Below are positions 4,864 to 27,600 of a stretch of 64,000 bases of DNA, one piece after another. Made by a program: the position numbers and the translations under genes. The number at the start of each line of letters is the position of its first letter. The stretch's first letter is position 1. The stretch is from an uncultured Clostridia bacterium (GTDB lineage: Bacteria > Bacillota > Clostridia > Christensenellales > UBA1242): NCBI GenBank assembly GCA_934747805.1, contig CAKVHC010000001.1, positions 22,286 through 86,285 of the forward strand, given 5' to 3'. Below the pieces are notes generated by a model. That model saw nothing but the letters and a program-made list of their open reading frames with translations. It was not told where the DNA came from and ran no database searches.

Positions 4864-5706
4864 ATGGAAAAACTTTTGCTTGTTGACGGCTCTGCCCTTT
4901 TGTTTCAATCTTTTTATGGCATGCCAAACAAAATCAAAACTAATAACGGCGAATATGTTGAAGCCGTAATTTGTTTCGTTGGGATTTTGCGTAAAGTCAT
5001 CGACCTGCTGAAGCCTGACTATGCGTGCGTAATTTTTGACGGTGAGAATGAGCTTGCTCGCAAATCAATCGACGACGATTACAAATCTAATCGAATAGAT
5101 TTCTCAAATGTCGAAGACATGAATAATCCATTCGCACAATTGGACAAAATAAAGGAAGTATTAAATTTATTTAACATTTACAATTTTGAGACCAGCGATT
5201 GCGAAGCGGATGATTATATCGCAGGAATCGTGAAAGAATGCGATGGACAATTACACACCATAATTTTTTCACCAGATAAAGATTTTTACCAACTAGTTTC
5301 TGACACGACCAACGTCTTTCATTATAGGGGCAAAAAGAGTGAGTTAATTGATGTCAACTCTTTCAAAAATAAGTACGGTTTCGAATCAAAATTCTTCGCA
5401 GACTACCTATCTCTCATCGGTGACAAAGCTGACAATATTTCTGGCGTTAAAGGAATTGGCAAAATTACAGCTACAAATATTGTAAAAAAATATTCAACCT
5501 TAAATAATTTATTTTTAAATATAGATAATGTACAAAATATTAAATTAAAAGAATTAATAGCGAATAATAAAGAAAAAATATTGAAAAATTATAAAATTAT
5601 TAATTTATTTAACGTAAAACCGCAAAAAATTGATAAAAATATATTAAATTTTAATATTTGCAAAATTTCTGTTTTAAATTATTTTAATAATAAAATAAAT
5701 AATTAA
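4864..5706 (+). CDS. 5'-3' exonuclease (FEN / Pol I N-terminal-domain-like)
   Basis: LLLVDGSALLFQSFY, DPDKDFYQLV, GDKADNISGVKGIGKITA (H3TH) motifs. Confidence 0.85.
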   Translation: MEKLLLVDGSALLFQSFYGMPNKIKTNNGEYVEAVICFVGILRKVIDLLKPDYACVIFDGENELARKSIDDDYKSNRIDFSNVEDMNNPFAQLDKIKEVLNLFNIYNFETSDCEADDYIAGIVKECDGQLHTIIFSPDKDFYQLVSDTTNVFHYRGKKSELIDVNSFKNKYGFESKFFADYLSLIGDKADNISGVKGIGKITATNIVKKYSTLNNLFLNIDNVQNIKLKELIANNKEKILKNYKIINLFNVKPQKIDKNILNFNICKISVLNYFNNKINN

Positions 5707-5861
5707 TTAAATATTCAATTAATTATTAAATGCAGGATATTTAATTTAATAAATATTTTGTTTGCAAATTTCTCTTTCATTTATTTCTTAGTACATTTTT
5801 TACACACTCGGCCAAGTTTTTTAAACTCTGCCCCATTAGTCCAATCAGCATAAAAACTCGC

Positions 5862-5890
5862 TTGTAATTTTTCATACGCCGTGCTATAAT
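5862..5890 (+). promoter_or_regulatory. Strong extended -10 promoter reading toward the split tRNA and the element-borne tRNA
   Basis: TTGTAA at 5862-5867, a 17-nt spacer, TGcTATAAT at 5882-5890. Confidence 0.5.
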
Positions 5891-6054
5891 ATCTATGTGC
5901 ACAATTAACTTAAAGGTGCTATCAAGCCAATAAGCTAAAATGTGCCATGCAACCACTTTCACAGCATGTGTTTATGCAACATTGATAGCCAATCTCATAC
6001 TCATCCTTGGCATAACAACTCAGATTGCTTGCACACACTCAACCAATCAAAGAT

Positions 6055-6093
6055 GACCTCATAGTAAAAGGAATATTACAAAATCCTCCTAAG
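6055..6093 (+). pseudogene. 5' half of a disrupted tRNA-Arg(CCT) gene (acceptor 5' strand, D arm, anticodon stem 5' strand and loop)
   Basis: GACCTCA-TA-GTAA-AAGGAATA-TTAC-A-AAATC-CTCCTAA-G. It pairs perfectly with the 3' half at 23373-23415. Confidence 0.8.
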
Positions 6094-6219
6094 TATCGAC
6101 TTGGACAAATTGAAAATCGCTAAACACCCCTAAAACGCTGACAATTTGCGACCCCTCAAAACATTCTCAAAACCAAAGTTCACCAAAAGTTCACCCAACA
6201 TTAAAAAAACCACCTATAT

Positions 6220-6296
<77 letters not shown>

Positions 6297-6310
6297 ATTT
6301 TAAAACAAAA

Positions 6311-6342
6311 AAAGGCATCCCTGTTACTGAGATGCCTTTTTT
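6311..6342. terminator. Bidirectional terminator shared by the tRNA (+) and the RT gene (-)
   Basis: AAAGGCATC-11 nt-GATGCCTTT flanked by A and T runs. The RT stop codon lies in the loop. Confidence 0.7.
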
Positions 6343-7493
6343 GAGAATTTGTTTGCAAATTCTTTAAGGGTATTAAATTTATAAGCATTGTAAATTTGTT
6401 CTTTTAATTTGGATGATCGAAATCTTCTGTTGTTTGGCGAAATACTTAAAATAAAATTCTTTTTATTTTTGTTTACATAATCAATGATTTGCTTCCTCTT
6501 GTCTTTAGTTTGAGGTTCAATATAATTAATTGTTTGTAAGATTCCATTTAGTTTAATAAACTCTTTCCATGAATTGAAATATGTATTACGATCAGATATT
6601 TTGCTTGATATTAAATACATATAAGACCTGGTCATTTTGTTATAAATTTTAGTAGATGCTCTTACCTTGTAACGTTTAACCCACACACCTGTTATTGTAG
6701 GAGCAAATTTATCAATAGTAATATTAAATTTTTTACATTTGTCTTTTTTGGATATGTGCCCATATTCCTCTAGAATTTTTATTACATCATTTATTACTTG
6801 ATCTTTATTAAAATCTTCTTTACTTGAAAAAGTCAAATCGTCAACATATGTTGAAAAAGTCAAATTATTTTCTTTTGCATATAAGTTTATTTTATCAAAC
6901 ATATATTTATATGAAAAAAAACATATTAGCGGACTAGTAGGAAATCCCTGTGGGATTTCTCTAATTTTTGTTTTATATGACTTAGGCCTTGTTACAAGTT
7001 TAGCCATTTTATCTGCAAGATCTGGGGCCATCTTTAAGCCTCCGTCTTTTATAAAAAAGTTTTGCACCTTTTCAAATTTACAGTTTGGAAAGAAACTTTT
7101 GATATCCATTAAAACAAAATTAGTATTACCATAATGGCATTTTGCATTTTTAAAAAATCCTTGTTCTGTTCTACTATATAAATATTTAGGTTGAGGTAAT
7201 TCGTTCAAAAATCTATAAAGCTTCTTAAGTGCCTTTTTCCTTTTTGGGCATGCATCATTAAATTTTCTGTAATTTTTAGTAGAATAATTTTTAGGTTTAT
7301 GCTTAAATTTTTGTTTTGTTTGCTTTGATTGATAAAATTCTATATCAAGTTTATCTAATTCTTTTTCTATATTATTAAGATCATGACGAGTTATAATATT
7401 ATCTTTATCACTTAATAGTTGTGCTACAAATTTCTTACTACCACGATTGTATAATATACTCTTATTATTGCTCTTTAGTTTCTTATATTTCAT
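6324..7493 (-). CDS. Retron-type reverse transcriptase (389 aa)
   Basis: NAKCHYGNTNFVLMDIKSFFPN (NAxxH plus motif A), IPQGFPTSPL (motif B), YVDDLTFS (YxDD), PTITGVWV (retron VTG-like motif). These are collinear with Ec86 RT motifs as I recall them. SD GAGGAG is present. Confidence 0.85.
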   Translation of the reverse strand: MKYKKLKSNNKSILYNRGSKKFVAQLLSDKDNIITRHDLNNIEKELDKLDIEFYQSKQTKQKFKHKPKNYSTKNYRKFNDACPKRKKALKKLYRFLNELPQPKYLYSRTEQGFFKNAKCHYGNTNFVLMDIKSFFPNCKFEKVQNFFIKDGGLKMAPDLADKMAKLVTRPKSYKTKIREIPQGFPTSPLICFFSYKYMFDKINLYAKENNLTFSTYVDDLTFSSKEDFNKDQVINDVIKILEEYGHISKKDKCKKFNITIDKFAPTITGVWVKRYKVRASTKIYNKMTRSYMYLISSKISDRNTYFNSWKEFIKLNGILQTINYIEPQTKDKRKQIIDYVNKNKKNFILSISPNNRRFRSSKLKEQIYNAYKFNTLKEFANKFSKKASQ

Positions 7494-7539
7494 AAAACTC
7501 CTCTAAAAGTAAAAACGCCAAATGTACTTCAACGATTAA

Positions 7540-7740
7540 TTAGTGATAATAGCCGAAATTCTTATGAAGGATTATCCCTAAATTAAAATTAGAATAAATT
7601 TCATTGATACCTTTAACTATAAAAATAATTGAAATTAACTCCAATGTATTAAGATGCAAAACCTTAATCAAAATAGGGAGCACAAAGATAAAAGTTAAAA
7701 AAATAAAGTTTTTTATGATTTTCTTTTTCTTTTTCTTCAT
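7540..7740 (-). CDS. 66-aa poly-Lys plus hydrophobic-helix membrane peptide between the structured leader and the RT gene
   Basis: AGGAGG SD lies 8 nt before the ATG at 7740. The sequence is MKKKKKKIIKNFIFLTFIFVLPILIKVL..., with a second short hydrophobic stretch LELISIIFIV. Confidence 0.5.
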   Translation of the reverse strand: MKKKKKKIIKNFIFLTFIFVLPILIKVLHLNTLELISIIFIVKGINEIYSNFNLGIILHKNFGYYH

Positions 7741-7760
7741 AGGCATCACCTCCTTTTAGT

Positions 7761-8040
7761 ATCTTAAATTTGAAATATCTAAAAAAAGGGACAACCACGA
7801 CAATCGGAACCTAAATTAACCTAGTTACATTTGGCTCTTTACTTGAGTGCATGGCATGAGTGTTTGTAGACAATGGAGAGGGCTTGCCCCTCGGAATGTC
7901 ACAAACACGCCATGAACGAACTTGGTCATCTTAAGCCAAAGTCTTGAGATGCCATTTGACCCATAAAAATGGACTACACGGATTTTCACCGTAATAATAT
8001 TGATGAGGTACTATTATCCATACCAATTTCAATATAAGAT
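7761..8040 (-). ncRNA. Candidate retron msr/msd-type (or DRT-type) structured non-coding RNA
   Basis: This ~280-nt ORF-free leader lies downstream of a consensus promoter. It has a 65-nt extended hairpin at 7850-7914, several short stem-loops, and terminal inverted repeats at 8040-8026 and 7776-7761. Confidence 0.45.
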
Positions 8041-8041
8041 A

Positions 8042-8070
8042 TATATAACATAATTTTCACCAAAAGTCAA
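8042..8070 (-). promoter_or_regulatory. Promoter of the ncRNA-peptide-RT operon
   Basis: On the minus strand: TTGACT (8070-8065), a 17-nt spacer, TGtTATATA (8050-8042). Confidence 0.55.
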
Positions 8071-8080
8071 GTTTATAGAA

Positions 8081-9472
8081 TTATTCAAATATTTTATTTA
8101 TTACTTCGCTTGCATGGATATCACTATTCTTTAGAAAGTGGCTGTAGAAGTCGCTGGTGGTTGAGGCTTTGCTGTGACCAGCTCTGGCTGAGACGGTTTT
8201 CATATCCACACCTGCCATTAGTTGCAAAGTTATGTTTGTGTGGCGAAGTGAATGGAGTGTGACGATTGGTAGCCCAGCTCGTGCAAGAGATTTCTGTAGC
8301 CATACTCGAAGTAATCCTGGGCAAATGTCTTTGCCATCTTCTGTACAGAAGAGCCTATCTGTGTCACCAAGTCTATCTCCAAGATATCTCTTTTGGTTTT
8401 GCCACCAAGCTTCGTATTCATGTAAGTACTCAATGAGTTTATCTGGCATTGAGATTGTGCGTTTTGAATTTTCTGTCTTTGGCTCTTTGGTGATTATTCC
8501 AAAGCCAACAATGTCTTGCACAGATCTTGCTATTGTCATTGTTTTGTTTGAGTAATCTATATCTTTCCATTCAAGGCCAGCAAGTTCGCCACGCCTTATC
8601 CCCATGAATAGTGCTATTAGCAAGGCAATCTTCCATCTTGGATTGTCTAGGTTATTCAAATACACTGCTAGTTGCTTTGCCTCTTTGTCATTAAGTATCT
8701 TGACTTCTTTTTTATGTCCTTGAATTGGCGCAATGTAATCACGAGATGCAAAGTTGTGTTCAACCAATCTTTGTCTTTTTGCATCGGCTAGAATTGTTGC
8801 CAATGTTCGCTTAAGTTTTAGTATAGTTTCTTTTGCGTACGGACGACTAATTACTTTAACACCAAACCACTCATCAAAGTTTAAGTTGAGTGCACTACAT
8901 ATTGTTTTGGCGCTATCAATTCTTATACCGTTGCCGACTGTAGCTGAATAATAGATTGATCTGGAGATGCCACTATTTCTAGTAGCATCAACCAGTTTTA
9001 TGCAGTGAGATTTTAGATACTGAGTTAAATCTCGTTTGAGGATTGCATATCTTTGTTCATATTTCTTTGCCATCATTTCATCTAGGAAACCTTGCACCAT
9101 GACTGGTGTTATTTGGTTGAGTTTAATATTTCCAAAGTATGCCTCAAACTTTCTAATATTGTCTCTACCTTTTATGTAGTAGTTTAGTGACCTAGTATTC
9201 TTAATCTTTTCTAGCCACTTATTGGCATAATCTATAAAAGTTATGTCGTTATCTACTGCAAGCATACCGTTTAGTTGTTTTTTAAACTTATCTTCAAAAT
9301 CCAAGCAAACTCTTTGCAACTCCTTCTTGGCTTGAATTTCTGTTAATTCGTTTGGTTTTCTCCAACACATTGATTTCGCCACGAATTGTCCAGTTCTTAG
9401 ATCTTTTGCTTTTACTTGTATTCTATATGATATTGATCCGTCATTTAGCTTTTTCTTTCTAACGCAAGCCAT
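8081..9472 (-). CDS. int: Tyrosine recombinase / phage-type integrase with an N-terminal arm-binding-type domain
   Basis: C-terminal catalytic signature ...GIRRGELAGLEWKD...HSLRHTNITL...GHSKASTTSDFYSH (R..HxxR..H..Y). The N-terminus KKLNDGSISYRIQVK is typical of arm-DNA-binding domains. Confidence 0.92.
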   Translation of the reverse strand: MACVRKKKLNDGSISYRIQVKAKDLRTGQFVAKSMCWRKPNELTEIQAKKELQRVCLDFEDKFKKQLNGMLAVDNDITFIDYANKWLEKIKNTRSLNYYIKGRDNIRKFEAYFGNIKLNQITPVMVQGFLDEMMAKKYEQRYAILKRDLTQYLKSHCIKLVDATRNSGISRSIYYSATVGNGIRIDSAKTICSALNLNFDEWFGVKVISRPYAKETILKLKRTLATILADAKRQRLVEHNFASRDYIAPIQGHKKEVKILNDKEAKQLAVYLNNLDNPRWKIALLIALFMGIRRGELAGLEWKDIDYSNKTMTIARSVQDIVGFGIITKEPKTENSKRTISMPDKLIEYLHEYEAWWQNQKRYLGDRLGDTDRLFCTEDGKDICPGLLRVWLQKSLARAGLPIVTLHSLRHTNITLQLMAGVDMKTVSARAGHSKASTTSDFYSHFLKNSDIHASEVINKIFE

Positions 9473-11627: not shown

Positions 11628-14600
11628 TTATATAATTCCAAAAAATTTTTCAAAGAATGCCAAAAGTTTTTCTATAATGTTTTTCTTTTTAATTTCACGA
11701 TTTCCGCCACCGAATCTTGACATTGCAGGCATTATTTTATCTATATCTGTACCTGTCGTTTTCATATTTCCATCTCTAAATGAATAATCTACAAATTTTC
11801 TTGTTTCAGCATCTTTCAAACCTTCTTGAGAAATTATCTGTGCAAGTTCTTTTTCCTTTTGCTCTGCAACAAACTCATGCCATTCAATCATTATGTCATC
11901 AACATCATTAATTCCAGCAATAAATGTGTCAATAAGTTGTTTTTTACTTCTAAGTTGCAAACTGCTATCTATTGCCTTGTTTATTGAAACAAGAATTTCT
12001 TTATCTTCACAATGTGTATCATGATATTTTTGAACTAGCAACAAGATATAATCTATATTAATCTCAATTTGTTTTATAAGCTCGACTTCAAAGACAACAT
12101 CATCATTGATATTTTCTTTATCACTATTATTTCGTCTACGTTTCCATTCTTCATACAAATCATTATATCTACCTTGATAATCCTGCAAATCTCTTTCAGT
12201 CAAAATTTCATTGCCAGCGAATTCATCAAATGAAGACAGAATATTGCGCATTCTAAGTATTGCTCCAAATAATCCTATAAAATCTTTTTGTGCCTGCTCT
12301 CCATAGATTTGAGGCTCTAATAATGGGTATTTATATTCTAGTTCCGCAATTAAATCCTTGTATCCAGGTTTCTTATTTCCTTTTTCATCAGTATATCCTT
12401 CAAAATAGTCTTTAAAACCTTTCATGAGACAAATGCCTCCAGCATTTTTATCTCCAAACAAACTAATTGCATCACCTGTTCTTTTCTGTAGGTTTCTAAA
12501 GCAAATTATATTTCCAAATGTTTTTATTGAATTAAGTATTCTGTTTGTCCTTGAAAATGCTTGAATAAGTCCATGCTGCTTAAGATTTTTGTCAACCCAT
12601 AAAGTGTTAAGGGTAGTGGCATCAAATCCAGTTAAAAACATATTTACAACAATCAATAGATCGATCTGTCTATTTTTCATTCTGAGTGACACATCTTTAT
12701 AATAGTTTTGAAATCTATCGCTTGAAGTATCATATTTAGTTTGAAACATTTTATTATAATCGTCTATTGCACCATCCAAAAAATCTCTTGAAGTCTTGTC
12801 AAGCCTTGTTGTATCTTCACTGTTTTCTTCACCAAGTATTCCATCAGACTCTTCTTCGTTTGCTCCATAACTGAAAATCGTTGCGATTTTAAGTTTTTTG
12901 CTTGGGTTTTCTTTCATTTGCTTTTTGAATTCATTGTAGTAAGCTTTTGCCGCATCAATAGAAGCAACGCAAAACATAGAGTTGAATCCATTCAAGTATA
13001 ATTTGTCTTTTTGTTCTTCAATTTTTTCGTTTCTTCTAGCGCTAGCAACTTCGGTAATATTCAAAAGGCTATTGAATGAATACATTTTTTCATTTCTATA
13101 AGTTTTGCTGTTATAGTGATCTAAAATATAACTTACAATTTTACTTATTCTTTGTGGTGCTAAAAAAGCCTTTCCTCTATCAATATCATTAACTGGTTTA
13201 TCATCAATGTCTGGTTCTTTATCCATTGTTTTTATATAATCGACCCTGAATGGTAAAACATTTTTATCATTTATAGCATCTACTATTGTATAAGTATGGA
13301 GCATATCACCAAAAGCCTGTTCAGTCGTTTTTAATTGAACATCTTTTCCACCACTAGAATTTGCTGCAAAAATTGGTGTGCCCGTAAACCCGAATAAATG
13401 ATAATTTTTAAATTTGCCTGTAATAGATTTATGCATATCGCCAAATTGCGATCTATGACACTCATCAAATATAATTACAATATGTTTATTATAAATTGAA
13501 TGATCTTTGTTTTTAGATATAAATCTATCAAGTTTTTGAATGGTTGTTATGATAATTCTACATTGGTCATTTTCTAGTTGCTTTTTAAGTATAGCAGTAG
13601 ATGTATTGCTATTTGCTGCCCCTTTTTCAAATCGATCATATTCTTTCATCGTTTGATAGTCCAAATCTTTTCTATCAACAACAAATAATACTTTATCTAT
13701 AAAAGGCAAGTTAGTAGCAAGTTGAGCGGTTTTAAATGATGTAAGAGTTTTACCACTTCCAGTTGTGTGCCAAATGTATCCACCAGCTTTAACTGTTCCA
13801 TATGTCTTATAGTTGTTTGATATTTCAATTCTGTTGATAATTCTTTCGGTCGCGACAATTTGATATGGTCTCATTACTAAAAGCATGTTTTCAGATGTAA
13901 AAACACAATATTTTGTTAAGATATTTAACAATGTATGCTTGGAAAAGAAGGTTTTTGTGAAATCAACAAGGTCGGGAATAATCTTATTACTTCCATCTGC
14001 CCAGAATGAAGTAAACTCAAAACTATTGCTTGTTTTAGACTTCCTTGCAGATTGTTGTTTGTTAAAATCTTTAACATGATTCCATCTTGTTGTATTAGAG
14101 TAATACTTTGTATTTGTTCCATTAGAGATCACAAATATTTGCACATATTCAAATAATCCACTTGATGCCCAAAAACTATCCCTTTGATATCGTTCTATTT
14201 GATTAAATGCTTCACGAATTGCAACTCCACGACGTTTTAATTCTACATGAACCAGAGGAAGTCCATTAACTAATATTGTTACATCATATCTTGTGTCATG
14301 ATTACCATTTGTTTCTATGTATTGGTTTATTACTTGTAATTTATTATTGTGAATATTAGTTTTGTCTATAAACTTAATGTTTTTTGTTGTTCCATCATCT
14401 CTGTGTAAAATTTGAACATAGTCTTCTTGAATCTTTCTTGTTTTTTCAACAATGCCTTCATTTTTACCTATTATGCACGAAGAAAGAAACTGATCCCATT
14501 CACTATCAGAAAAATTGTATTTATTTAATTCTTCTAGTCTTTTTCTTAAATTCAAAATCAAATCAGCTTCTGTGTGAATAGGTAAGTACTCATAGCTTTG

Positions 14601-14738
14601 TGATTGTAACAATTTAATAAACTCTTTTTCAAGTTGAGCTTCGCTTTGATACTTATCAGACTTGTTATTTGTAGGCTTATACTCAGTCATAACAGTGCTT
14701 TCGCTAGATTCTGAAACTATGTTACAAAAACTCATCAT
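11628..14738 (-). CDS. hsdR: Type I restriction enzyme R subunit
   Basis: SF2 helicase motifs (TGSGKTLTS, IIFDECHRSQ, TGTPI, QAFSRTNR) and an N-terminal nuclease region (DVTILVNGLPLVHVELK). SD AAGGAGA is present. Confidence 0.93.
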   Translation of the reverse strand: MMSFCNIVSESSESTVMTEYKPTNNKSDKYQSEAQLEKEFIKLLQSQSYEYLPIHTEADLILNLRKRLEELNKYNFSDSEWDQFLSSCIIGKNEGIVEKTRKIQEDYVQILHRDDGTTKNIKFIDKTNIHNNKLQVINQYIETNGNHDTRYDVTILVNGLPLVHVELKRRGVAIREAFNQIERYQRDSFWASSGLFEYVQIFVISNGTNTKYYSNTTRWNHVKDFNKQQSARKSKTSNSFEFTSFWADGSNKIIPDLVDFTKTFFSKHTLLNILTKYCVFTSENMLLVMRPYQIVATERIINRIEISNNYKTYGTVKAGGYIWHTTGSGKTLTSFKTAQLATNLPFIDKVLFVVDRKDLDYQTMKEYDRFEKGAANSNTSTAILKKQLENDQCRIIITTIQKLDRFISKNKDHSIYNKHIVIIFDECHRSQFGDMHKSITGKFKNYHLFGFTGTPIFAANSSGGKDVQLKTTEQAFGDMLHTYTIVDAINDKNVLPFRVDYIKTMDKEPDIDDKPVNDIDRGKAFLAPQRISKIVSYILDHYNSKTYRNEKMYSFNSLLNITEVASARRNEKIEEQKDKLYLNGFNSMFCVASIDAAKAYYNEFKKQMKENPSKKLKIATIFSYGANEEESDGILGEENSEDTTRLDKTSRDFLDGAIDDYNKMFQTKYDTSSDRFQNYYKDVSLRMKNRQIDLLIVVNMFLTGFDATTLNTLWVDKNLKQHGLIQAFSRTNRILNSIKTFGNIICFRNLQKRTGDAISLFGDKNAGGICLMKGFKDYFEGYTDEKGNKKPGYKDLIAELEYKYPLLEPQIYGEQAQKDFIGLFGAILRMRNILSSFDEFAGNEILTERDLQDYQGRYNDLYEEWKRRRNNSDKENINDDVVFEVELIKQIEINIDYILLLVQKYHDTHCEDKEILVSINKAIDSSLQLRSKKQLIDTFIAGINDVDDIMIEWHEFVAEQKEKELAQIISQEGLKDAETRKFVDYSFRDGNMKTTGTDIDKIMPAMSRFGGGNREIKKKNIIEKLLAFFEKFFGII

Positions 14739-14753
14739 TTTCTCCTTATGTTT

Positions 14754-15872
14754 TTAATTTACTTTTTCCTTAAATGTCAAAAGTTTATTTCTATAATACT
14801 CGTATTGTTGTTGTCTTTTTTCTATTTCTGCCGGCAACCCAATTCCAAGGTCAGAACATATTTTGTCAAAGTTGTCTAAAACATTCACAATTCGTTGTTG
14901 AATGTCAAGTGGAGGAATTGGAATTTCATAATTTACAATCATTGGAATTGTTAATTGAGGGATGCCTGTTTCTGGTATTTTAAATTGAACAGTTTGAAGA
15001 TAATGATACAAAAATTCTGCCATTAAATCTTTCTTTGGTTGTGCAGAAATCAAACGAATAATAGGATAAAATGGTTCATTTCGTAACGCACAATGGCCTA
15101 CAGTTCCTCTAGCAGCAATCGTAACGCATTTATTTTTTACTTTTGCCACATCAGTATAACCATACAAAGCATTTTCCCCGACTCCATTACTATAAATTGG
15201 AATATTATATGTCTTGGTCCTAATTTTAGAAAACCTATCCTTTGGGACATCTCCACCCGCCGACAATAAACATACATCACCAAGTTTTTTCCATTCAAAT
15301 TTCGGTTCTTCAAAGGTTAAAAGTTTATCTCTATAATAATTATATTGCTTTTTTCTCGCTGTAAGCTCCGCTGTAAGCTCCGCTGTAAGCTCCGTGAAAT
15401 TGTCAAGTACCTTGACAATTTCACTTTGGACTTCCAAAGGTGGAATTGGAATTTTAAATTTATCAATGTCAGTTTTATTAAGGGCTGGAATGCTTCCACG
15501 AGAAACAATTGAACTCATTATATTTTCTTCACAATTTTTTAATGCATAATACATGTATTTAGTCTTATATTCAGATTCGTTCTTTGAACGGTAAGGATAA
15601 CATAAACCACCAGCCCAAAAATCTTCGTTTATATATGAAATAAAACCTGCATATTCTCCCCTTGAAGCGATAGTAATTGCATTTTTAGTATTATTGTTTT
15701 TATCGTATTTACCATAAAAGTCTCTGCCTGAATTCATAACGGGATAACCAACAGCTTTTAATTCACTTTGTTTAAGAGTACCTTTAGGTAAGTTACAACA
15801 TATTTCATCAATTTTTTTGAATTCCACACCATCAGGGCATAATTTTTCAATCAATTCTTCAATTTTACTCAT
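14754..15872 (-). CDS. hsdS: Type I restriction enzyme S (specificity) subunit
   Basis: Two TRDs, each followed by a conserved helix ([19 protein letters not shown]...[14 protein letters not shown] and [19 protein letters not shown]...[15 protein letters not shown]). The ATG at 15872 overlaps the hsdM stop by 8 nt. Confidence 0.9.
15357..15392 (-). repeat. Perfect 3 x 12-bp tandem repeat (GAGCTTACAGCG, encoding ELTA x3) in the central conserved helix of hsdS
   Basis: The plus strand reads CGCTGTAAGCTC three times in tandem. It translates to ...[17 protein letters not shown]... Confidence 0.95.
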
Positions 15873-17463
15873 TATTATTGCCTCCTTCAATGTCGGCAAT
15901 AATTTTGTCAATTTCTTTTCTCAAAACTTCTTCGTGAGCGACGATTTCTTTTATTTGTTGATTTAACACCTTTATATCAATTTTTTCTTTTGTATCTTCT
16001 TTCTCAACATAAGTAGAAACTGAAAGATTGTAGTTTTGTTTTGCAATTTCTTCATTAGAAACAAGTTTTGCAATGTTATCAACGTCCCTTCTATTTGAAA
16101 ATAATTCAAGAATTTTTTCAATATCCCCGTCTTTGCCTGTTCTTAACTTATTGTTGTTTGTAACTTTAACACAATACTTACTTGCATCTATAAAGAGTGT
16201 GGAATTATCATTTTTAGACTTTTTTAATACCATTATACAGGTTGCTATGCTTGTACCAAAAAATAGGTTATCTGGCAATTGAATAATAGAATCGATAAAG
16301 TTGTTATCTATCAAATATTGTCTTATTTTTTGCTCAGCACCACCACGATAGAATATTCCAGGGAAGCATACAATTGCAGCAGTTCCATTTGTTGCAAGCC
16401 AAGAAAGCGAGTGCATAACAAATGCAAGGTCAGCCTTAGACTTTGGTGCAAGAACTCCAGCTGGAGCAAATCTTGGATCATTTATAAGCTTTATATCATC
16501 ATCGCCAGGCCACTTAATTGAATATGGTGGATTAGAAACAATTGCTTCAAAAGGTTCTTCATCCCAATGTTGAGGAGCAAGAAGAGTGTCATCACAAGCG
16601 ATGTTAAACTCATCATAATTGATGTCATGTAAAAACATATTGATTCTGCAAAGATTGTATGTTGTTAGATTTACTTCTTGACCAAAAAAACCTTGACGGA
16701 CTTTATCTTTTCCTAAAACTTTTGCAAAGTTCAAAAGAAGTGAGCCAGAGCCGCACGCTGGGTCATAAACCTTATTGACTTCTGTTTTACCAACAACAGT
16801 TAGTCTTGTAAGTAATTCTGAAACTTCTTGTGGAGTATAATACTCGCCACCAGATTTCCCAGCATTTGAAGCATACATTCCCATCAAAAATTCATAGGCA
16901 TCACCAAACGCATCTATTGTATTATCTTGATAATTACCAAGCTTCATTTCGCCAATGTTGTCTAAAATTTTAAGCAATTTTTCATTTCTTTTAGCAACCG
17001 TAGCACCAAGTTTATTTGAGTTAACATCAATATCATCAAATAAGCCTTTAAAATCATCTTCGCTATCGCTGCCTTTAGCAGAGTTTTCAATGGCTTTAAA
17101 AACCTTTTCCAATGTTTCATTTAGATTTTCTTTGTATTTGGGATATTTATTTGCATTCGCTCTTACATTGCAAAAAAGTTGGCTTGGCAAAATGAAAAAG
17201 CCTCTACTGTTTACCATATCTTCTCGAGCCTGTTCAGCTTCTGAATCACTTAATTTTGTGTAATCAAAGCCAATATCACCATAATCATGTTCATTTTTGT
17301 TTATATAATTTGCTATGTTCTCAGAGATATATCTGTAAAACATAAAGCCTAGAACATATTGTTTAAAGTCCCAACCATCAACCGAACCTCTTAAATCATT
17401 CGCAATATTCCAAATCGCTTTATGTAGTTCATCTCTTTCTTGTTCTTTAATGTTATTTGCCAT
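15865..17463 (-). CDS. hsdM: Type I restriction enzyme M subunit (N6-adenine DNA methyltransferase)
   Basis: N-terminal HsdM_N-like [36 protein letters not shown], AdoMet motif [10 protein letters not shown] and catalytic NPPY (SNPPYS). Confidence 0.95.
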
Positions 17464-18539: not shown

Positions 18540-19214
18540 TTATATACCTAATCTTGTTCTTAATTCCATTGATAGGATTTCACCATTATATGTAAAAACA
18601 TCAGTGCCTGCAACATGTCTATTTTTGCTGCCACGTTGCACATTCAATTCTCCAGCTAATCCACTCAGAGAATATTGTTTCCCTTCATATTCAACTTTTG
18701 TTTCAGATATAACTATACATTTTATTGTTGGATCTTTTGTGTAAACAAGCTCAGCGTCAATTGGAATTCCATATTCAGAAAATGTAAGTTTTTTCCTAGT
18801 CCTTTCATAGTGTCTTTTAATCTCACCAGCTTCTTTTGTTTGTTTTCTCTGTTCTTGAGTTGGAGCAATGCGTTTTAAGTTCTTCAATAGACCATTTATC
18901 GATGCAATGTCTTCTAGCGTTTGATATGCATCTTCAGCACTCATAATATAAAACTCTCTTTTGCGTTGTTTACCATTATTATTTTCAATTGCTTTTAACC
19001 CTGGGTTAAATCTATCAATTATTGCATGGACTTTTTTATCAGTTAAACGCTCAGCTACTTTATAAGTTGCATATACCTGGAAAGAAAAAGGAATGCATTC
19101 ACTTCTATTTAGTTGTGTTAATCTTTCATCAACATCACTTGCATAACCAATTTTCACATATTCCGGGAAAGATGGGTTTGTTAAAATGTAAATATATCCA
19201 GCAGTTTCTTCCAT
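18540..19214 (-). CDS. GIY-YIG / T5orf172-type nuclease-domain protein with a DUF4357-like C-terminal domain
   Basis: GYIYILTN...YVKIGYA...RL..LN... at the N terminus. The C-terminal region YEGKQYSLSGLAGELN...FTYNGEIL is of the kind often seen in type I R-M operons. SD GGAGG lies before the ATG at 19214. Confidence 0.7.
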   Translation of the reverse strand: MEETAGYIYILTNPSFPEYVKIGYASDVDERLTQLNRSECIPFSFQVYATYKVAERLTDKKVHAIIDRFNPGLKAIENNNGKQRKREFYIMSAEDAYQTLEDIASINGLLKNLKRIAPTQEQRKQTKEAGEIKRHYERTRKKLTFSEYGIPIDAELVYTKDPTIKCIVISETKVEYEGKQYSLSGLAGELNVQRGSKNRHVAGTDVFTYNGEILSMELRTRLGI

Positions 19215-19325
19215 AAAGACCTCCAATCTATGACAATTATAACATAAAAAATCTGTAAATTGTATTTAATTTACAATATTTTATAAGAAAAATATTTTTC
19301 CTTAGAAAATGTGGTGAAAAATTAT

Positions 19326-20147: not shown

Positions 20148-20972
20148 ATGATTACACCCTTTTTAAGATGGGCTGGTGGTAAACGCTGGTTAATTAACGA
20201 AGTAAATGATTTAATAAGAGGCTACGAATTTAATAATTATTATGAGCCTTTTCTTGGTAGTGCTGCAATTTTTTTTAATATTGAAGCTTCTTTCACTAAA
20301 TGTTATCTTAATGATATAAATAATGAGTTAATCTTAACCTATAAACAAGTTAAAGAAAATAAGAACTCTGTTATTAAATATTTAAAACAATTTCCGAATG
20401 AAAAAGATTTTTATTATGATATCAGAAAAAAACGATTTAGAAGTTTAAGTAAGCAAGCTGCTCAATTCATCTATCTAAATCACACCTCCTATAATGGTAT
20501 TTATAGGGTTAATAGTAAAGGCGAATATAATGTTCCTTTTGGGTATAAAAAGAACTACACAATCGATGAACAATCTCTCAATACATGTTCTGAAAAGTTG
20601 CAAAATTCAGTTCTATCTTCAGGTAACTTTACATGCTTTGTAGATCAAATCCAAGAAGGAGACTTAATCTTTCTAGATCCGCCATATACTGTTTCACACA
20701 ACAATAATGGTTTTATAGAATATAATAAAAACTTATTTTCATTAGAAGATCAAATAAGATTGAGTGAATTTATAGATAAAATAAAAGAAAAAAGGGCTTA
20801 TTATATATTAACAAATGCTGTCCACAAAAAAATTGATGAAATATTTGATAAAGGCGATTACAAATATATCCTTAATCGATCTAGCACTATAGGTGGAAGA
20901 AATGCAAAGCGAGGACAAATAGAAGAATATTTATTTACTAATATTAAAAGGAGAAATTCTAGTGATAATTAA
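20148..20972 (+). CDS. dam: Dam-family (D12 class) N6-adenine DNA methyltransferase
   Basis: N-terminal PFLRWAGGKRWL, EPFLGSAAIFF, and catalytic DPPY at 20676-20687. SD AGGAG is present. Confidence 0.9.
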   Translation: MITPFLRWAGGKRWLINEVNDLIRGYEFNNYYEPFLGSAAIFFNIEASFTKCYLNDINNELILTYKQVKENKNSVIKYLKQFPNEKDFYYDIRKKRFRSLSKQAAQFIYLNHTSYNGIYRVNSKGEYNVPFGYKKNYTIDEQSLNTCSEKLQNSVLSSGNFTCFVDQIQEGDLIFLDPPYTVSHNNNGFIEYNKNLFSLEDQIRLSEFIDKIKEKRAYYILTNAVHKKIDEIFDKGDYKYILNRSSTIGGRNAKRGQIEEYLFTNIKRRNSSDN

Positions 20973-23196
20973 TCAAGCTCTAGACTTAAGTACAGATCAA
21001 AAAAAGTTATTGACAAATGTAAAACAAAAGTTTATTCGCAAAACAATTTTAAAAGAAGAAATTTCTAATTATGAAGAGCAAGGATATGTTGTATCTTCAA
21101 AACAAAAATCAAAAGCAATTGTAAAAAAATTAAAACCAGAAATTGAACTTGGTTATTATGAGTTTGTTCAATTGTTTTGTGAAATGGGTTTTAAAATTAT
21201 TCCCAATTTGCCACATTCTTTTAATGATGAGACAAAAGATATATCTGATTTTAGTTTTATCGCAGAAGATAATGAATGTATTTTAATTTGCTATTACTTA
21301 TATTCTTATGCAAAAAAAGAAATAAGTTGTTTTGAACAAGTCTTAGAAAATATCAGATCAAATTATGGAGAATTATTAAAAGAACTTAGAAAAATATTTA
21401 CTGGCAATAAAAAATTTAAGGTTATCATTTGCACAAAAAACTACGCCATTTCTAAAAGTGATATTTCCTTTATTGGTGAACAGAAATATTTTTATATCGA
21501 TGATGATAGATTAGAATATTATAACAATTTAAACAAGCATCTCGGCAACGCATCAAAGTATCAATTATTGGGAAATCTGTTCTCAGGACAAAAGATTGCA
21601 AACTTAGATGAAGTAATACCTGCCATACAAGGCAAAATGGGAGGATTAACATATTATTCTTTTTCTATAGAACCAGAAAAACTATTAAAAATAGGATACA
21701 TACTTCATAGGACAGATGCGAATAGAAATGATATGCCAACATATCAAAGACTTATTAGAAAATCAAGATTAAAACAAATAGAAACTTTTATTAATAATGG
21801 TGGTTTCTTTCCTAACTCTGTTATTATAAGCATTGATACAAATAAAAAAGGGTTAACTTTCTCTCTTTCTAGTTTGCAAGACGAAACTTCAATCTCAAAA
21901 ATAGGTCTACTAAAACTACCTCAAAGATATAAGTCTGTTTATATTATTGATGGACAACATCGTCTTTATGGTTATGCAAACACACAATATAAAGAGACAA
22001 ACACCATACCTGTAGTTGCCTTTTTGGATCTTGCTAAAAATGATCAGATAAAGCTTTTTATGGAGATTAATGAAAATCAAAAATCAGTATCGAAAAATCT
22101 TAGAACAACACTAAATGCGGATCTATTATGGGATTCTGAAAATCCAACAGAAAGAAACACGGCTCTTTTCTCAAGAATTGCTCAGGAATTAGGAGAAAAT
22201 ACAGATTCTCCTTTATTTGATAGAGTTATTATTGGTGAAAATAATAAAACAGACAAGTGTTGTATTACATTAGATACAATTAGGGATGCTTTGGATAAAT
22301 CTGGTCTGTTTAATAAATATAAAGGATCAGAAATTGAGCGTTCTGGTATTTGTGATTTAAATAATAATGATAAAAACTTTGACAATATATTTGCTTTATT
22401 AGTTAGTTCTTTTAAATATATTAAACAAAATGACATTGAAAATTGGAATAAATCAGAAGATGAAAACAAATGGGTATACAATATTTCAATTTACGGAATT
22501 ATAAGAATTATTTCTGACATATCTAATATCTTATTAACAACTAATCTATATAATCAAGACAAAATTAATGAACATTTTGAAGATTTTAAACCTTATCTAG
22601 ATGCAATAATTCAAGGTGTAAATGATTTGAATGACGAGCAGAAGAAAGATTTAAAAACTTCTTATGGTGGCGGAGGCCGAATTAAGTATTGGAGAACATT
22701 ACAAGGTTTTATTTTAAGTAAATTCCCAAATATTATTTTTGATGGATATGAGGAGTGGCAAAAAAATAATACAAAACAATTTAATACCCAAGCATTTTCT
22801 TTAATAAGTGATATCGAATCATATTTAAATGAAAAAGTAAAAGAAAAATTAGTTTCTGAATTTGGTAAAAAATGGATGATAAATGGCATCCCTAAAGCTG
22901 TTATGCAAAAAATCAGAGATTTAAAAACGGAAAAAGAATATGAAGAGCCAGATATTGAAATAGATGAGTGGGATTGTTTGCACCTTATAGACTATAGAGA
23001 CATTATGATAAATAATTGGCAAAACATTTTTGATAAGGATTATTCCGATCCTTTCGTTAAAGGACGTTCAAAAAAAGATAAAACCGAATGGTTGGTAAAT
23101 TTAAATAGAATAAGAAATAATGTAGACCATAATAGAAGTGTTTCTGAAGAAGATTTCAAATATTTAAACAACATTCATAATTGGCTTATAAAGTAG
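20962..23196 (+). CDS. DGQHR-domain (DndB / ParB-Srx-like) protein with an unassigned N-terminal domain and a C-terminal HEPN-like Rx4H motif (744 aa)
   Basis: YIIDGQHRLYGY (21949-21963 encodes DGQHR), then FMEINENQKSVSKNL. C-terminal WLVNLNRIRNNVDHNRSV (R716/H723, 23107-23130). A GTG start after AGGAGA overlaps the dam stop by 11 nt. Confidence 0.8.
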   Translation: MIINQALDLSTDQKKLLTNVKQKFIRKTILKEEISNYEEQGYVVSSKQKSKAIVKKLKPEIELGYYEFVQLFCEMGFKIIPNLPHSFNDETKDISDFSFIAEDNECILICYYLYSYAKKEISCFEQVLENIRSNYGELLKELRKIFTGNKKFKVIICTKNYAISKSDISFIGEQKYFYIDDDRLEYYNNLNKHLGNASKYQLLGNLFSGQKIANLDEVIPAIQGKMGGLTYYSFSIEPEKLLKIGYILHRTDANRNDMPTYQRLIRKSRLKQIETFINNGGFFPNSVIISIDTNKKGLTFSLSSLQDETSISKIGLLKLPQRYKSVYIIDGQHRLYGYANTQYKETNTIPVVAFLDLAKNDQIKLFMEINENQKSVSKNLRTTLNADLLWDSENPTERNTALFSRIAQELGENTDSPLFDRVIIGENNKTDKCCITLDTIRDALDKSGLFNKYKGSEIERSGICDLNNNDKNFDNIFALLVSSFKYIKQNDIENWNKSEDENKWVYNISIYGIIRIISDISNILLTTNLYNQDKINEHFEDFKPYLDAIIQGVNDLNDEQKKDLKTSYGGGGRIKYWRTLQGFILSKFPNIIFDGYEEWQKNNTKQFNTQAFSLISDIESYLNEKVKEKLVSEFGKKWMINGIPKAVMQKIRDLKTEKEYEEPDIEIDEWDCLHLIDYRDIMINNWQNIFDKDYSDPFVKGRSKKDKTEWLVNLNRIRNNVDHNRSVSEEDFKYLNNIHNWLIK

Positions 23197-24604: not shown

Positions 24605-27600
24605 CTACTTGGCATATGCCCAAACTGCACTAAATACTGTGTCGCCAGTTATTGTAAAACCTTTCAATACATCACACGACTCAGTGTCTGGCTGAGTGGC
24701 CAATTTGTTGTAAGACAACTGTCGTGGTCCAGTAACGCTCCATGTATGTAAGTTAAAAGCATATTCTTTTCTAATATACGCACCAGTATATGCATAAATA
24801 CACGATGTGGTATATTTGGTTAAATCAATATAAGTGCCTTGTAGTACTTTAAATGGTTGGCTAGGAATATTTGCTGCCTTTACACATTCAGTACGAATAA
24901 ACCATTTTCCAAGGGTCTTTTTATCGTTTTCCCAAGTTGCCGGCTTAACGAAATCTACACAGAACGATACAGTATAATATTTTCTCACATCAACAGTCCA
25001 ATCAGCCTGCAAAGTTGTATCTTCTTTCGGCATAGAAAAAGTTTCAGTGTTTTCGACTCTGTTTTCACCTATGTAATAGCCATTAAACGTGTAATCAATA
25101 CGTTCAATCTCTTTTCCATCATCATAAAAGTAAGTCGACTGTTGTGGAATCTTAATCATTTCGCCTTGATAAATCGTTTGAACGGTGTTTAAAACCGTAC
25201 CATAAGCGGATTTAATTGTCAAGGTGTAGCGATTGCGGATGTAAATCTTTACATCTGCACTTGGCATTGTGAACGCATCAAAGTCCACAAGTTCTGTGAA
25301 ATTTGCATCTAAGTAATAGAGTGTGGATTCAACCAGTCGTGCATCGCTGATCGCTGGTTTAACTCCTTCTACCACATAATGTGAGTAGATATTTTCATCG
25401 CCGTCAATTATTTCTAGCAAATAGCTTTCTTCAGCCTTAACGACCATCCACTTTGCATACAATGTCACACTGTCGTTTGGCATAGTCTTTGAATTAAACA
25501 CATTGTTAAATTCAGCATCAACATACCAGCCGTCAAATCGTTTGGTGTAAGTTATATTGCCAATTTTTTCGACTAATGGTTGGTCATATTGTGGCAATTC
25601 CAATTCCGCCCCAACCAGTGAAGTAATGTCTGCAATTGCTTCTCCGCCGTTAGTTACGAAACTAATTGTCACATAGTTAACAGACGCTATCTCCCACTTT
25701 GCATAAAGCAATGTGTCACGTCGTGGCATAATGTTCTGATTGTATTCGCTGTCCGAGTCGAAAGACTTGGTTGTATACCAGCCAGCGAAAGTATGATACG
25801 TTCTTTCACTAGCGGTATCAACGAAATAATCATTAAGCGTTGGCAAGGTCAATTCGCTGCCTGCCACTCCCTTGATGTCGGCAATTTTTTCAGAGCAGTT
25901 CGTTTCAAAACTTAATAAGAACTCACGTTGACTACTTAAGTTCCAATCTCCGTCATACGCATCCCAGGCTGAACCTTCGCTTAAACCAGCGTTGGCAGAT
26001 GTGAAATCGTACATTTCTTGCATATCTGTTTTAGCGCCAATATTGACAAGGTTGAGATTGTCTGATTTTAGAACAATATTAACACTAGAAGCCAGGTCAA
26101 TATTCATGTCCACTGTGAGTCCGCCCACAATCTTGTCGCCATTATAGTTCTGAGTTCTAACGCCAACAGTCATATTGCCCAGTTTATCGTCTTCGACAAG
26201 TTCTTGCAAGTTGATAACCAGCTCATAATAATTCTCAGTTGCGCTGAATCCTTTCAGTACATTGCTGTAATCGAGTGGATTCTGGCGTTCTTTGTTCACA
26301 AGTTTGTTGATTTCAGCCATAATCTTTTCACTGAAACCGAATCCGTATTGCAAAATATAATACAAAGGGTCATCAAGTAAGGTGTCAACATGAATCTTCA
26401 TTTTCTTTTCGTACAATCTGTCTGCTTGGAACACTGTCGTTGGCACAGTTTCAGATCTGTACAAATATACCATATTGTCTTTGATATAAATGTGGAGTAT
26501 TCGATTCAATCCAGAATAGATGCCGCTTGTGACATTGCCCACTTTGAATGGAACGTCATCATTGACACCTGGCACAACAGGAATAGCTCCAAGTCGTGCG
26601 CTGGCTTCAAACTCGTTGCCGCCCAACAGTTTGACTTTGACATTGACAGGAATGTTCCAATCGATGTTGATTCCAACCACGTTGAGTTTCAAGTTAATTG
26701 AGCCGTCAATCTCAAAATCTGTAAACTGTTTACTATTTGCCAATGCGTCAATCAGATTTTCCACACCAGACAAATCAATGTAGTCCGCAGCAGGAGCACT
26801 CGCAATAGGTGTAAATTCTTGCAAAGCAATTGACACGCTGTCAACTTGGTTGTTGGCAATTGTCAAGTCCTTTACAACCAGACTAGTTAGGCTGTCGGCA
26901 TCATAATCCACATCCAATTTGAGAGTGTGGATTTCGTCCAAGTCAAGTCCTAAATCTGTCAAATCTACAACAATCGCTATATTAGAATCGGTGATAGACA
27001 GTTTTTCAATCATCTCAATCTTAAACTTATTCAATATTTCATCAATGTTAAATCCGTCAATCATTTGAGTGATTTTTTGAATATCTATGTCGCCCATCTC
27101 CACATTCAATAGTTCGCTAACTGCACTAATGAGTTGGCCTATATTGTCGCCGCCAATCTTGGCGTACATTTTGTTGTATCGAATGTAAAGCCCGTTGTCT
27201 ATGAATGTGATCTCAATCGAGTGTTGGTTAGTCACCGTGCTGTATGGGTTTTGTGCACGCACTCCGTTCGTGTACTCAAACTTTTCAGTTATTGTCGTCA
27301 CTTCAAAGTTGATATATGCACGCATTTTGTTTATGTTAAATTTGTTTTTGCCGTTTTCAATTGTGTAAGCATCTTTCCATTCAAAGCGTGCGTTACTTCC
27401 GTCCAGCATATGAATGGTTGTGACCACTGCCTTTAGCGGATTGTCTCTTGCATCTCTTTGCACTGAACTATGTACAATATCTGTTTTCAGTCCAAATGCA
27501 ATCTGCTTGTTATCCACAACTTCAATCGCAGTGTTCAAAACGCTATTGATAACGTCTTGCAAAGAATCTAAACTACAATATATGCTTTCGTCAGCCATTT

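Follow-up and report, generated by a model that had tools for sequence, protein, structure and literature searches.

Does an operon that consists of a structured RNA, a tiny hydrophobic peptide and a retron-type reverse transcriptase (RT) represent a new kind of retron, or a known kind in which a part is missing? This question was raised by the minus strand of a 64,000-nt stretch of DNA (hereafter the window; positions 22,286 to 86,285 of contig CAKVHC010000001.1, GenBank assembly GCA_934747805.1) from a metagenome-assembled genome (MAG) deposited as an uncultured Clostridia bacterium. A first-pass annotation, made from the letters alone, had described here a promoter, a leader RNA, a 66-aa peptide (the small protein, SP) and a 389-aa RT in an order that it did not recognize, and we found all of these elements and both Shine-Dalgarno sequences (SDs) where it had placed them. 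The novelty of the arrangement does not hold, because the order RNA-SP-RT matches a catalogued retron type, the outcome that the annotation itself had named as decisive against it: it is that of the Type VI operon (Mestre et al. 2020, PMC7736814), as also seen in Retron-Vpa2 (Zhang et al. 2025, 10.1101/2025.10.22.683967) and Retron-Sen3 (Garcia-Rodriguez et al. 2026, 10.64898/2026.04.27.721009).

The locus exemplifies a system already catalogued; it is no new kind of element. The peculiarity that had been overlooked is the missing helix-turn-helix (HTH) gene of Type VI systems. RT, RNA and SP all place the locus in the Type VI lineage, of which it is an HTH-less variant. With a probability of roughly three in four, we regard this promoter-RNA-SP-RT operon as a Type VI-lineage anti-phage module that rides as cargo in an integrative defense island, at its tRNA-proximal end.

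The reverse transcriptase and the missing HTH gene

The RT gene (6324-7493, minus strand) has its own SD, GAGGAG, at 7498-7503. The retron landmarks on which the first-pass annotation had relied (NAxxH, PQGFPTSP, YVDD and a VTG-like ITGVWV) can all be read in the translation, within the motifs KNAKCHYG, LMDIKSFFPN, IPQGFPTSP, YVDD and PTITGVWV, and the RT thereby carries the NAxxH, VTG-type and YxDD features of retron RTs in general. The best PADLOC match was RT_VI (1.7e-53, 179.7 bits), followed at a distance by RT_III-A as the second family (86 bits), and every one of the best 25 of 36 PADLOC matches was a retron RT model. Pfam returned RVT_1 only, and NCBIfam returned retron or retron-type RT models (St85, Ec67, retron-TIR), all under their cut-offs. 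A profile of the RT family searched against the sequences of the PDB, where no Type VI structure exists, matched retron RTs only, with the type IX Retron-Kva2 on top. The AlphaFold2 (AF2) model of the RT (mean predicted local distance difference test score, pLDDT, 86.8) has an all-helical C-terminal region from residue 281, and in Foldseek the PDB ranks 1-18 were retron RTs, above the RTs of AbiK/Abi-P2, G2L4, group II introns, defense-associated RT systems (DRT) and diversity-generating retroelements (DGR). By PADLOC profile score, this is an RT of the Type VI retron lineage.

The retron call is thereby upheld, and a grouping with group II, DGR or Abi RTs, which had been named as grounds for withdrawing it, is excluded by the PADLOC, NCBIfam, PDB and Foldseek results. 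What could still be said for an RT of a non-retron defense class (Abi, UG/DRT, group II-like or DGR) next to an RNA unrelated to msr-msd comes from the leader. An Rfam scan of 5500-9000 at E<=1 returned a tRNA only and no match for the leader; neither an a1/a2 priming duplex nor a branching G could be identified in the leader RNA, and the retron single-stranded DNA (ssDNA) is assumed by analogy. With RT_VI far ahead among the profiles, sequence and structure matches that point to retron RTs, and the NAxxH and VTG-type motifs in place, we consider such an origin of the RT very improbable.

Homologues of the RT form about 90 clusters with 40-98% identity (closest cluster 93%; locus L001 98%), followed by a gap down to 27-35%. 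Genome and metagenome scans placed the loci of this family in gut and rumen MAGs labelled Bacilli, Tenericutes, Erysipelotrichaceae or 'Clostridia', and searches of phages and of IMG/VR yielded distant RTs only, with 24-30% identity. The most distant family member (L023) reaches 173 bits with RT_VI, and distant relatives too score highest on this model. The RTs of the family are 381-411 aa long, compared with 280-363 aa in canonical relatives.

Mestre et al. (2020) found this RT group associated with a Cro/C1 HTH protein and with small auxiliary proteins (75-79 aa). In the canonical relatives of our RT (Methylococcaceae, Nevskia, three IMG/VR contigs and Bacteroidetes-type contigs) the order is SP-HTH-RT, with 224-252 bits for RT_VI and 98-118 bits for HTH_VI. 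No HTH_VI gene, the Cro/C1-type HTH of cluster 2_1, adjoins or overlaps the RT in the window, where SP and RT are separated by 46 nt that hold the GAGGAG; this gap measures 23-66 nt in 57 loci of the family. A hidden Markov model built from the canonical HTHs found nothing in the module of the window or in any family locus, while its five positive controls were recovered at 1e-44 to 1e-49. Elsewhere in the window, HTH matches were limited to weak generic XRE-type ones at 34.6, 44.5 and 60.4 kb, at least 27 kb from the module. An HTH fused to the RT was considered as well and rejected, since hhalign gave a probability of 0.2% for the RT family against HTH_VI and the AF2 model adds nothing but the all-helical C-terminal region. 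No conserved effector was found in the flanks, where serine recombinase, Type I restriction-modification (R-M) and rep-like genes vary between loci.

The absence of the HTH gene extends beyond this family. Other Bacillota loci with an RT_VI-class RT (Salinibacillus, Virgibacillus, Enterococcus dongliensis and the E. faecalis plasmid pKUB3007-4) have a small ORF for a basic or hydrophobic peptide immediately ahead of the RT, and HTH_VI is lacking. Because these loci are also without the HTH gene, the HTH-less SP-RT arrangement is a Bacillota-wide sub-architecture of the Type VI lineage and not an accident of the window.

Two observations on Enterococcus may be added. The pKUB3007-4 locus (L084; NZ_AP018547.1 29731-30958) and 15 other Enterococcus plasmid records encode an RT of the RT_VI class (224 bits). 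On these mobilisable 36-kb plasmids of E. faecalis an overlapping 93-aa hydrophobic 'hypothetical protein' stands ahead of the RT, without an HTH and next to a PemK/MazF toxin gene, and the locus has the appearance of an HTH-less Type VI retron that has escaped annotation in a cultivable pathogen. In E. dongliensis (L026, 367-1530), the SP frame enters the RT frame without a stop codon and gives a 387-aa ORF with RT_VI over residues 82-370. A natural fusion of SP and RT is one possibility, a merely mechanical ORF start the other.

The small protein and the RNA scaffold around its gene

The SP gene (7540-7740, minus strand) starts MKKKKKKIIKNF / MKKKKKKIIKNFIFLTFIFVLPILIKVLHL and is preceded, 8 nt ahead of its ATG, by a strong SD (AAAAGGAGG, 7749-7757). 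The encoded peptide joins a Lys6 N-terminus to a very hydrophobic helix (19-aa Kyte-Doolittle peak 2.48; net charge +8), and its AF2 model is a two-helix hairpin (helices 2-27 and 32-62, pLDDT 71), which fits the 'two-helix core' that has been reported for SPs of Type VI. An intact SP ORF of 58-71 aa with an SD, ending 23-66 nt ahead of the RT, was present in 57/57 loci, these being the ones with enough upstream DNA. The ratio of nonsynonymous to synonymous substitution rates (dN/dS) was 0.19-0.62 in 10 of 11 pairs (0.19 for the window and L002) and 1.14 in the remaining pair. The peptide proposed by the first-pass annotation is thus real and conserved: ORF conservation and dN/dS show that it is kept under selection, and by composition and AF2 model it is basic and hydrophobic, with two helices. 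Its sequences diverge strongly; what persists is a basic N-terminus, a (S)NFNxG-like motif and one or two hydrophobic helices; the pattern of a basic N-terminus and a hydrophobic helix occurs in some canonical SPs too. In position between RNA and RT, in size, helix and two-helix model it corresponds to the small helical hydrophobic-core protein of Type VI retrons, a likeness of layout and model. Judged from its composition the SP is probably membrane-active, and by analogy with Type VI systems it is the presumed toxic effector.

One could argue instead that the effector of this retron is something other than the 66-aa ORF. The ORF would then be a by-product of the structured RNA, and RNA and RT would act alone, with an unlinked host factor, or with an HTH or effector encoded elsewhere. 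It is true that the 3' end of the ORF doubles as RNA pairing elements (UAUUAUC and a helix arm over the stop codon, see below), that one SP pair has a dN/dS above 1, and that none of Pfam, PADLOC and NCBIfam yields a family match for the SP. Set against this are an ORF that stays intact over RT identities from 98% down to 39%, its strong SD, its narrow range of lengths and constant physico-chemical pattern, and the low dN/dS of nearly all pairs; no other gene is conserved across the family flanks, the modules lack an HTH_VI match and the weak generic HTH matches of the window lie far off. We therefore regard it as unlikely that the effector is to be sought outside the SP.

As a separate observation, the SP gene opens with an A-rich lysine run, AUG AAG AAA AAG AAA AAG AAA (7719-7740), which is conserved in groups A and B of the family. 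It is speculation that this poly-A/Lys tract could slow or slip ribosomes and so act as a further brake on toxin synthesis.

Transcription of the SP gene would start well upstream. The promoter (8042-8070, minus strand) was read directly from the sequence and consists of a -35 element TTGACT (8065-8070), a 17-nt spacer and an extended -10 element TGtTATATA (8042-8050). A strict scan for consensus promoters did not list it because its -10 ends in A; in the leader alignment the extended -10 column TGnTATAAT is conserved over 17 homologous loci. The predicted hybrid RNA (hyRNA-like; 7494-8036, minus strand) comprises the leader, the SP coding sequence and a 3' tail up to the RT start, with the 5' end set from the -10 element and the 3' extent likewise a prediction. 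The leader had been described as highly structured, about 280 nt long and free of ORFs. Its structure is clear, with a folding energy 4.4 standard deviations below shuffled sequences (z = -4.4) for the leader alone and z = -6.4 together with the SP gene (minimum free energy, MFE, -147 kcal/mol). The length is rather about 295 nt, and in the literal sense the leader is not ORF-free, as it contains a 54-aa mechanical GTG ORF (7825-7989). This ORF has no recurring counterpart of comparable length in the leaders of homologous loci, which hold only short mechanical ORFs of about 28-57 aa, and the region shows RNA-type covariation.

Consensus folds of two sequence groups, computed independently, gave the same layout (all coordinates on the minus strand). 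It begins with the stem-loop SL1 (7997-8035), in which four of five stem pairs show compensatory changes and whose apical loop GAUAAUA (8012-8018) is of an invariant type across the aligned leaders, AGAUAAUAG. Alignments and folds then place the hairpin SL2 (7979-7991), CGG-UGAAAAU-CCG in the window, CGG-UGAAARU-CCG in aligned form and CAGU...ACUG in the distant group, and the hairpin P4 (7927-7951), which is variable in length. The 65-nt hairpin P5 (7850-7914) has a conserved CAAGC apical loop and invariant UUGUG / CUACAA segments. RNAalifold found compensatory changes in 15 of 20 predicted pairs (17 pairs in P5 and three in the SL1 inner stem); run on the plain MAFFT leader alignment it recovers these two elements, and the remainder of the layout needed group-wise folding and arms anchored by hand. 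P5 is the candidate msd, the putative template for reverse transcription, by analogy with Vpa2, in which the msDNA maps to a long stem-loop of the first arm.

Two long-range helices enclose the SP gene. In helix L1, the 5' arm (GUAAA..GCCAAAUGUA, 7826-7842) pairs with the 3' arm (UACAUUUGGC..UUUAC, 7509-7526) in the tail behind the SP gene; the core joins GCCAAAUGUA (7826-7835) to UACAUUUGGC (7517-7526), with compensatory changes in 7 of 10 core pairs and 98.8% of cells paired. In helix L2, the 5' arm GGUUAAUUUAG (7811-7821) pairs with CUAAUUAAUC (7534-7543), which overlaps the SP stop codon; here 6 of 11 pairs are compensatory and 98.9% of cells paired. A loop-loop pseudoknot connects the SL1 loop to UAUUAUC (7545-7551) inside the last SP codons. 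It is paired in 100% of 25 sequences, with GAUAAUA/UAUUAUC replaced by GGCAAUA/UAUUGCC and GGUAAUA/UAUUACC. In the distant group, the UAUUAUC-type element sits past the SP stop codon and is still conserved, hence it is conserved as RNA and not as protein. Counted on 25 distinct sequences, L1, L2 and the pseudoknot together have 97.1% of cells paired, compared with 27-52% when the partners were slid by 1-3 columns, and 19 of 33 pairs changed on both sides. None of 500 shuffles reached the observed values on four of five measures; on the remaining one, the number of further pair types, 255 of 500 equalled the observed number. Because the arms were picked out and anchored manually, the count is somewhat biased towards structure; the compensatory changes are nonetheless visible in the raw sequences. 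An extension of L1 (GUAAA/UUUAC) and a helix L3 are paired in every group with shifted registers and were left out of the formal count.

Within this enclosure lies a riboregulator hairpin (7749-7790). In both MFE and centroid folds, the anti-SD CCCUUUU (7784-7790) pairs with the SP SD AAAAGGAGG, and across the family it is conserved or covarying about 30 nt ahead of the SD, with CACCUU facing AGGUG in the distant group. Partition-function folding of 30 homologous hyRNAs gave a mean unpaired probability of 0.14 for the SD and 0.16 for the SP start codon; for the entire transcript the value was 0.36. The SP mRNA forms part of a conserved RNA scaffold in which SD and start codon are predicted to be paired and the coding region is closed by two covarying helices and a pseudoknot. 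By computation, this provides the embedded SP, the sequestered ribosome-binding site and the flanking inverted repeat of a Type VI hybrid RNA. The layout matches the published hyRNA and IR1-IR2 descriptions and adds the contact between SL1 loop and SP 3' end, which was not found in the available portions of the Vpa2 and Sen3 descriptions.

A short repeat is shared by P5 (7850-7914) and the riboregulator region (7784-7810): AUUGUC in the window and UCACCU in the distant group (L055, L019, L021, L062, L064). The latter is the anti-SD itself, therefore a cDNA of that stretch would mimic the SD. Such mimicry by cDNA is suggestive only.

SP and leader might also be read as a self-standing module of the type I toxin-antitoxin kind, next to an RT that is functionally uncoupled from it. 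The small, basic and hydrophobic peptide and an SD sequestered by a hairpin in cis would suit such a module, and in Sen3 the HTH-SP module is described as independent of RT and ncRNA. What speaks for coupling is that SP and RT are co-inherited at a spacing of 23-66 nt in every locus while the flanks vary, and that the RNA helices tie the 3' tail of the SP gene to the leader segment abutting the msd-like hairpin. Published Type VI systems require RT catalysis for defense, and no antisense promoter or RNA came up here, neither having been searched for. An uncoupled RT seems to us improbable, and we continue with the Type VI module in which RNA, SP and RT act together.

Genomic setting

The operon is closed by an intrinsic terminator (6308-6342, minus strand) with a 14-bp stem followed by a T run. 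It is placed between a tRNA-Arg(CCT) gene (6220-6296, plus strand; ARAGORN and Rfam), the probable integration site, and a tyrosine integrase gene (8081-9472, minus strand), which lies upstream of the operon together with an excisionase-like gene. The integrase was recognized by Pfam Phage_integrase and, all under curated cut-offs, by the NCBIfam XerA/XerC/XerD and integron integrase models. Of the earlier proposal that the operon occupies the att-proximal edge of an integrative element, the flanking integrase and tRNA stand; an att repeat was not found, as the tRNA 3' end occurs only once in the 64-kb window and a search for direct repeats was uninformative. An identical SP gene and RT occur with the same integrase and tRNA-Arg(CCT) but with other host genes beyond, and the module therefore travels with the integrative element.

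In L001, L078, L080 and L083, the integrase-retron module abuts tRNA-Arg(CCT) and the host neighbors differ (Thy1, Peptidase_S51, 5'-3' exonuclease). This pattern fits site-specific integration into tRNA-Arg(CCT) in several hosts.

The integrative element is a defense island. It also carries Type I R-M genes for HsdR (11628-14738), HsdS (14754-15911) and HsdM (15865-17463), a T5orf172-domain gene (18540-19226), and a Dam-type methylase gene (20148-20972) followed by a gene for a 744-aa DndB-domain (DndB-like) protein (20962-23196). A very large ORF of 2363 aa (24605-31696, minus strand) was observed on the same element.

Restraint of the presumed toxin and comparison with known systems

Type VI is the sole retron type whose msDNA (multicopy single-stranded DNA) reportedly switches a toxin on rather than restraining it, and in canonical Type VI retrons msDNA is often undetectable without a trigger. 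In Retron-Vpa2, a single 'hybrid RNA' comprises both msr-msd and the SP coding sequence, with the SP ribosome-binding site and AUG buried in stem-loops; the SP is a toxin, reverse transcription is repressed by the HTH, and msDNA induced by phage relieves the repression of SP translation (Zhang et al. 2025). For Retron-Sen3, a ncRNA of about 280 nt has been described in which the ribosome-binding site is sequestered and the SP is flanked by the repeats IR1-IR2; here the HTH acts as a post-translational antitoxin, and an HTH is present in about 78% of Type VI entries (Garcia-Rodriguez et al. 2026). These two studied systems disagree on mechanism and both depend on the HTH.

A working model for our locus can be drawn up by analogy with Vpa2 and Sen3. 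P5 would serve as the msd template, and the RT would bind the hybrid RNA. In the uninfected cell the SP toxin would be kept untranslated by the anti-SD hairpin inside the closed long-range scaffold. Upon phage infection, probably via phage recombination or anti-RecBCD functions, ssDNA would accumulate or the RNA would be remodelled; either event would free the SD and the SP would be made. The SP would then kill or arrest the cell, probably by insertion into the membrane, in the manner of abortive infection. Without an HTH, restraint must come from the RNA architecture and/or the larger RT, and candidates for the avoidance of self-toxicity are repression by the RNA only and the N- and C-terminal extensions of the RT.

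Several points weigh against the Type VI module as proposed. The HTH, the central regulatory node in Sen3 and reported as needed for viability in both studied systems, is absent here, therefore the published Vpa2 and Sen3 mechanisms cannot apply unchanged. The RT_VI score is 180 bits here compared with 217-252 bits in canonical members, and the SP sequence search reached eight close clusters only, with no detectable homology beyond close relatives. To these come the priming duplex and branching G that could not be identified in the leader, and the direct repeat of 7 nt between msd and riboregulator of the Vpa2 type, which has no consistent counterpart across our groups. We infer msDNA production, toxicity and defense from the likeness to studied systems.

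A more far-reaching reading would be that the Bacillota branch of Type VI is a minimal two-gene system of SP and RT, in which the pseudoknotted hybrid RNA, possibly with the enlarged RT, is the sole antitoxin of a membrane-inserting toxin. We offer this tentatively, at somewhat less than even odds. If true, the HTH 'central node' would be dispensable and RNA architecture alone would couple reverse transcription to toxin release. A natural lineage with RT, SP and an SP-enclosing scaffold but no HTH provides a direct test of what RNA and RT can achieve alone, and the loop-loop contact, which covaries and joins the 5' stem-loop to the 3' end of the SP gene, gives a concrete and testable element of structure. 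The lineage is common in Bacilli of the human and mouse gut and the rumen, with relatives on Enterococcus plasmids. PADLOC and DefenseFinder use a rule of RT plus HTH, and detection tools that demand both genes may miss HTH-less systems.

Among known systems, the type I toxin-antitoxin membrane toxins (Hok, Fst, TisB type) are about 60 aa long, combine a basic end with a transmembrane-like helix, and are kept from being translated by the fold of their own mRNA. The SP resembles them as a small basic peptide with such a helix and a predicted block of translation by mRNA folding; it differs in that its module is fused to a retron template and an RT, and no antisense RNA is evident, none having been searched for. 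Type IV retrons (Ec48/Eco6) resemble our locus in that their retron RT falls in the same broad clade 3 and their effector, like the presumed one here, targets the membrane. Their effector is a full-size protein with two transmembrane helices (2TM) encoded outside the ncRNA, and their msDNA is abundant and acts as antitoxin, whereas RT_IV is not among the best 25 of 36 PADLOC matches to our RT and no full-length 2TM effector gene is conserved in the flanks.

The HTH-less Bacillota loci named above (Salinibacillus, Virgibacillus, E. dongliensis and pKUB3007-4) are alike in having RT_VI as the best model (217-242 bits), a small ORF before the RT and no HTH_VI, and they are annotated merely as 'hypothetical protein' and 'reverse transcriptase family protein'. 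Their RTs are shorter (321-339 aa) and share only about 30% identity with ours. Moreover, their small ORF overlaps or abuts the RT start, which leaves no intergenic room for the pairing elements of the 3' tail.

Closest in organization are the canonical Type VI systems. As in Vpa2 and Retron-Eco12, a structured RNA opens the operon and is followed on the same transcript by a small ORF for a toxic protein, here a presumed one; the SP ribosome-binding site and start codon lie in stem-loops, a long stem-loop is the (here putative) template, and the RT is of the RT_VI class. In Vpa2 an HTH stands between SP and RT and its R7D mutant is toxic, whereas no HTH is found here, and the conserved 7-nt repeat of msd and riboregulator does not appear in consistent form. 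Canonical Type VI RTs share about 27-35% identity with the RT of the window, which is longer, and the SP is much more hydrophobic than those of Vpa2 and Eco12, with a transmembrane-like helix. The host is a MAG of gut Bacilli, that of Vpa2 a proteobacterium. With Sen3 (cl2075) the locus has in common an RNA of about 280 nt upstream of the SP, a sequestered SP ribosome-binding site, a stem-loop near the 5' end, a conserved inverted repeat around the SP comparable to IR1-IR2, with the IR2 part right after the SP stop codon, and the two-helix core of the SP. In Sen3 the HTH is a post-translational antitoxin of a constitutively made SP, a component that is absent here. The long-range stem covaries in our family, whereas IR1-IR2 of Sen3 falls short of significance, and the loop-loop pseudoknot that joins the SL1 loop to the 3' end of the SP gene is an additional contact of the RNA reported here.

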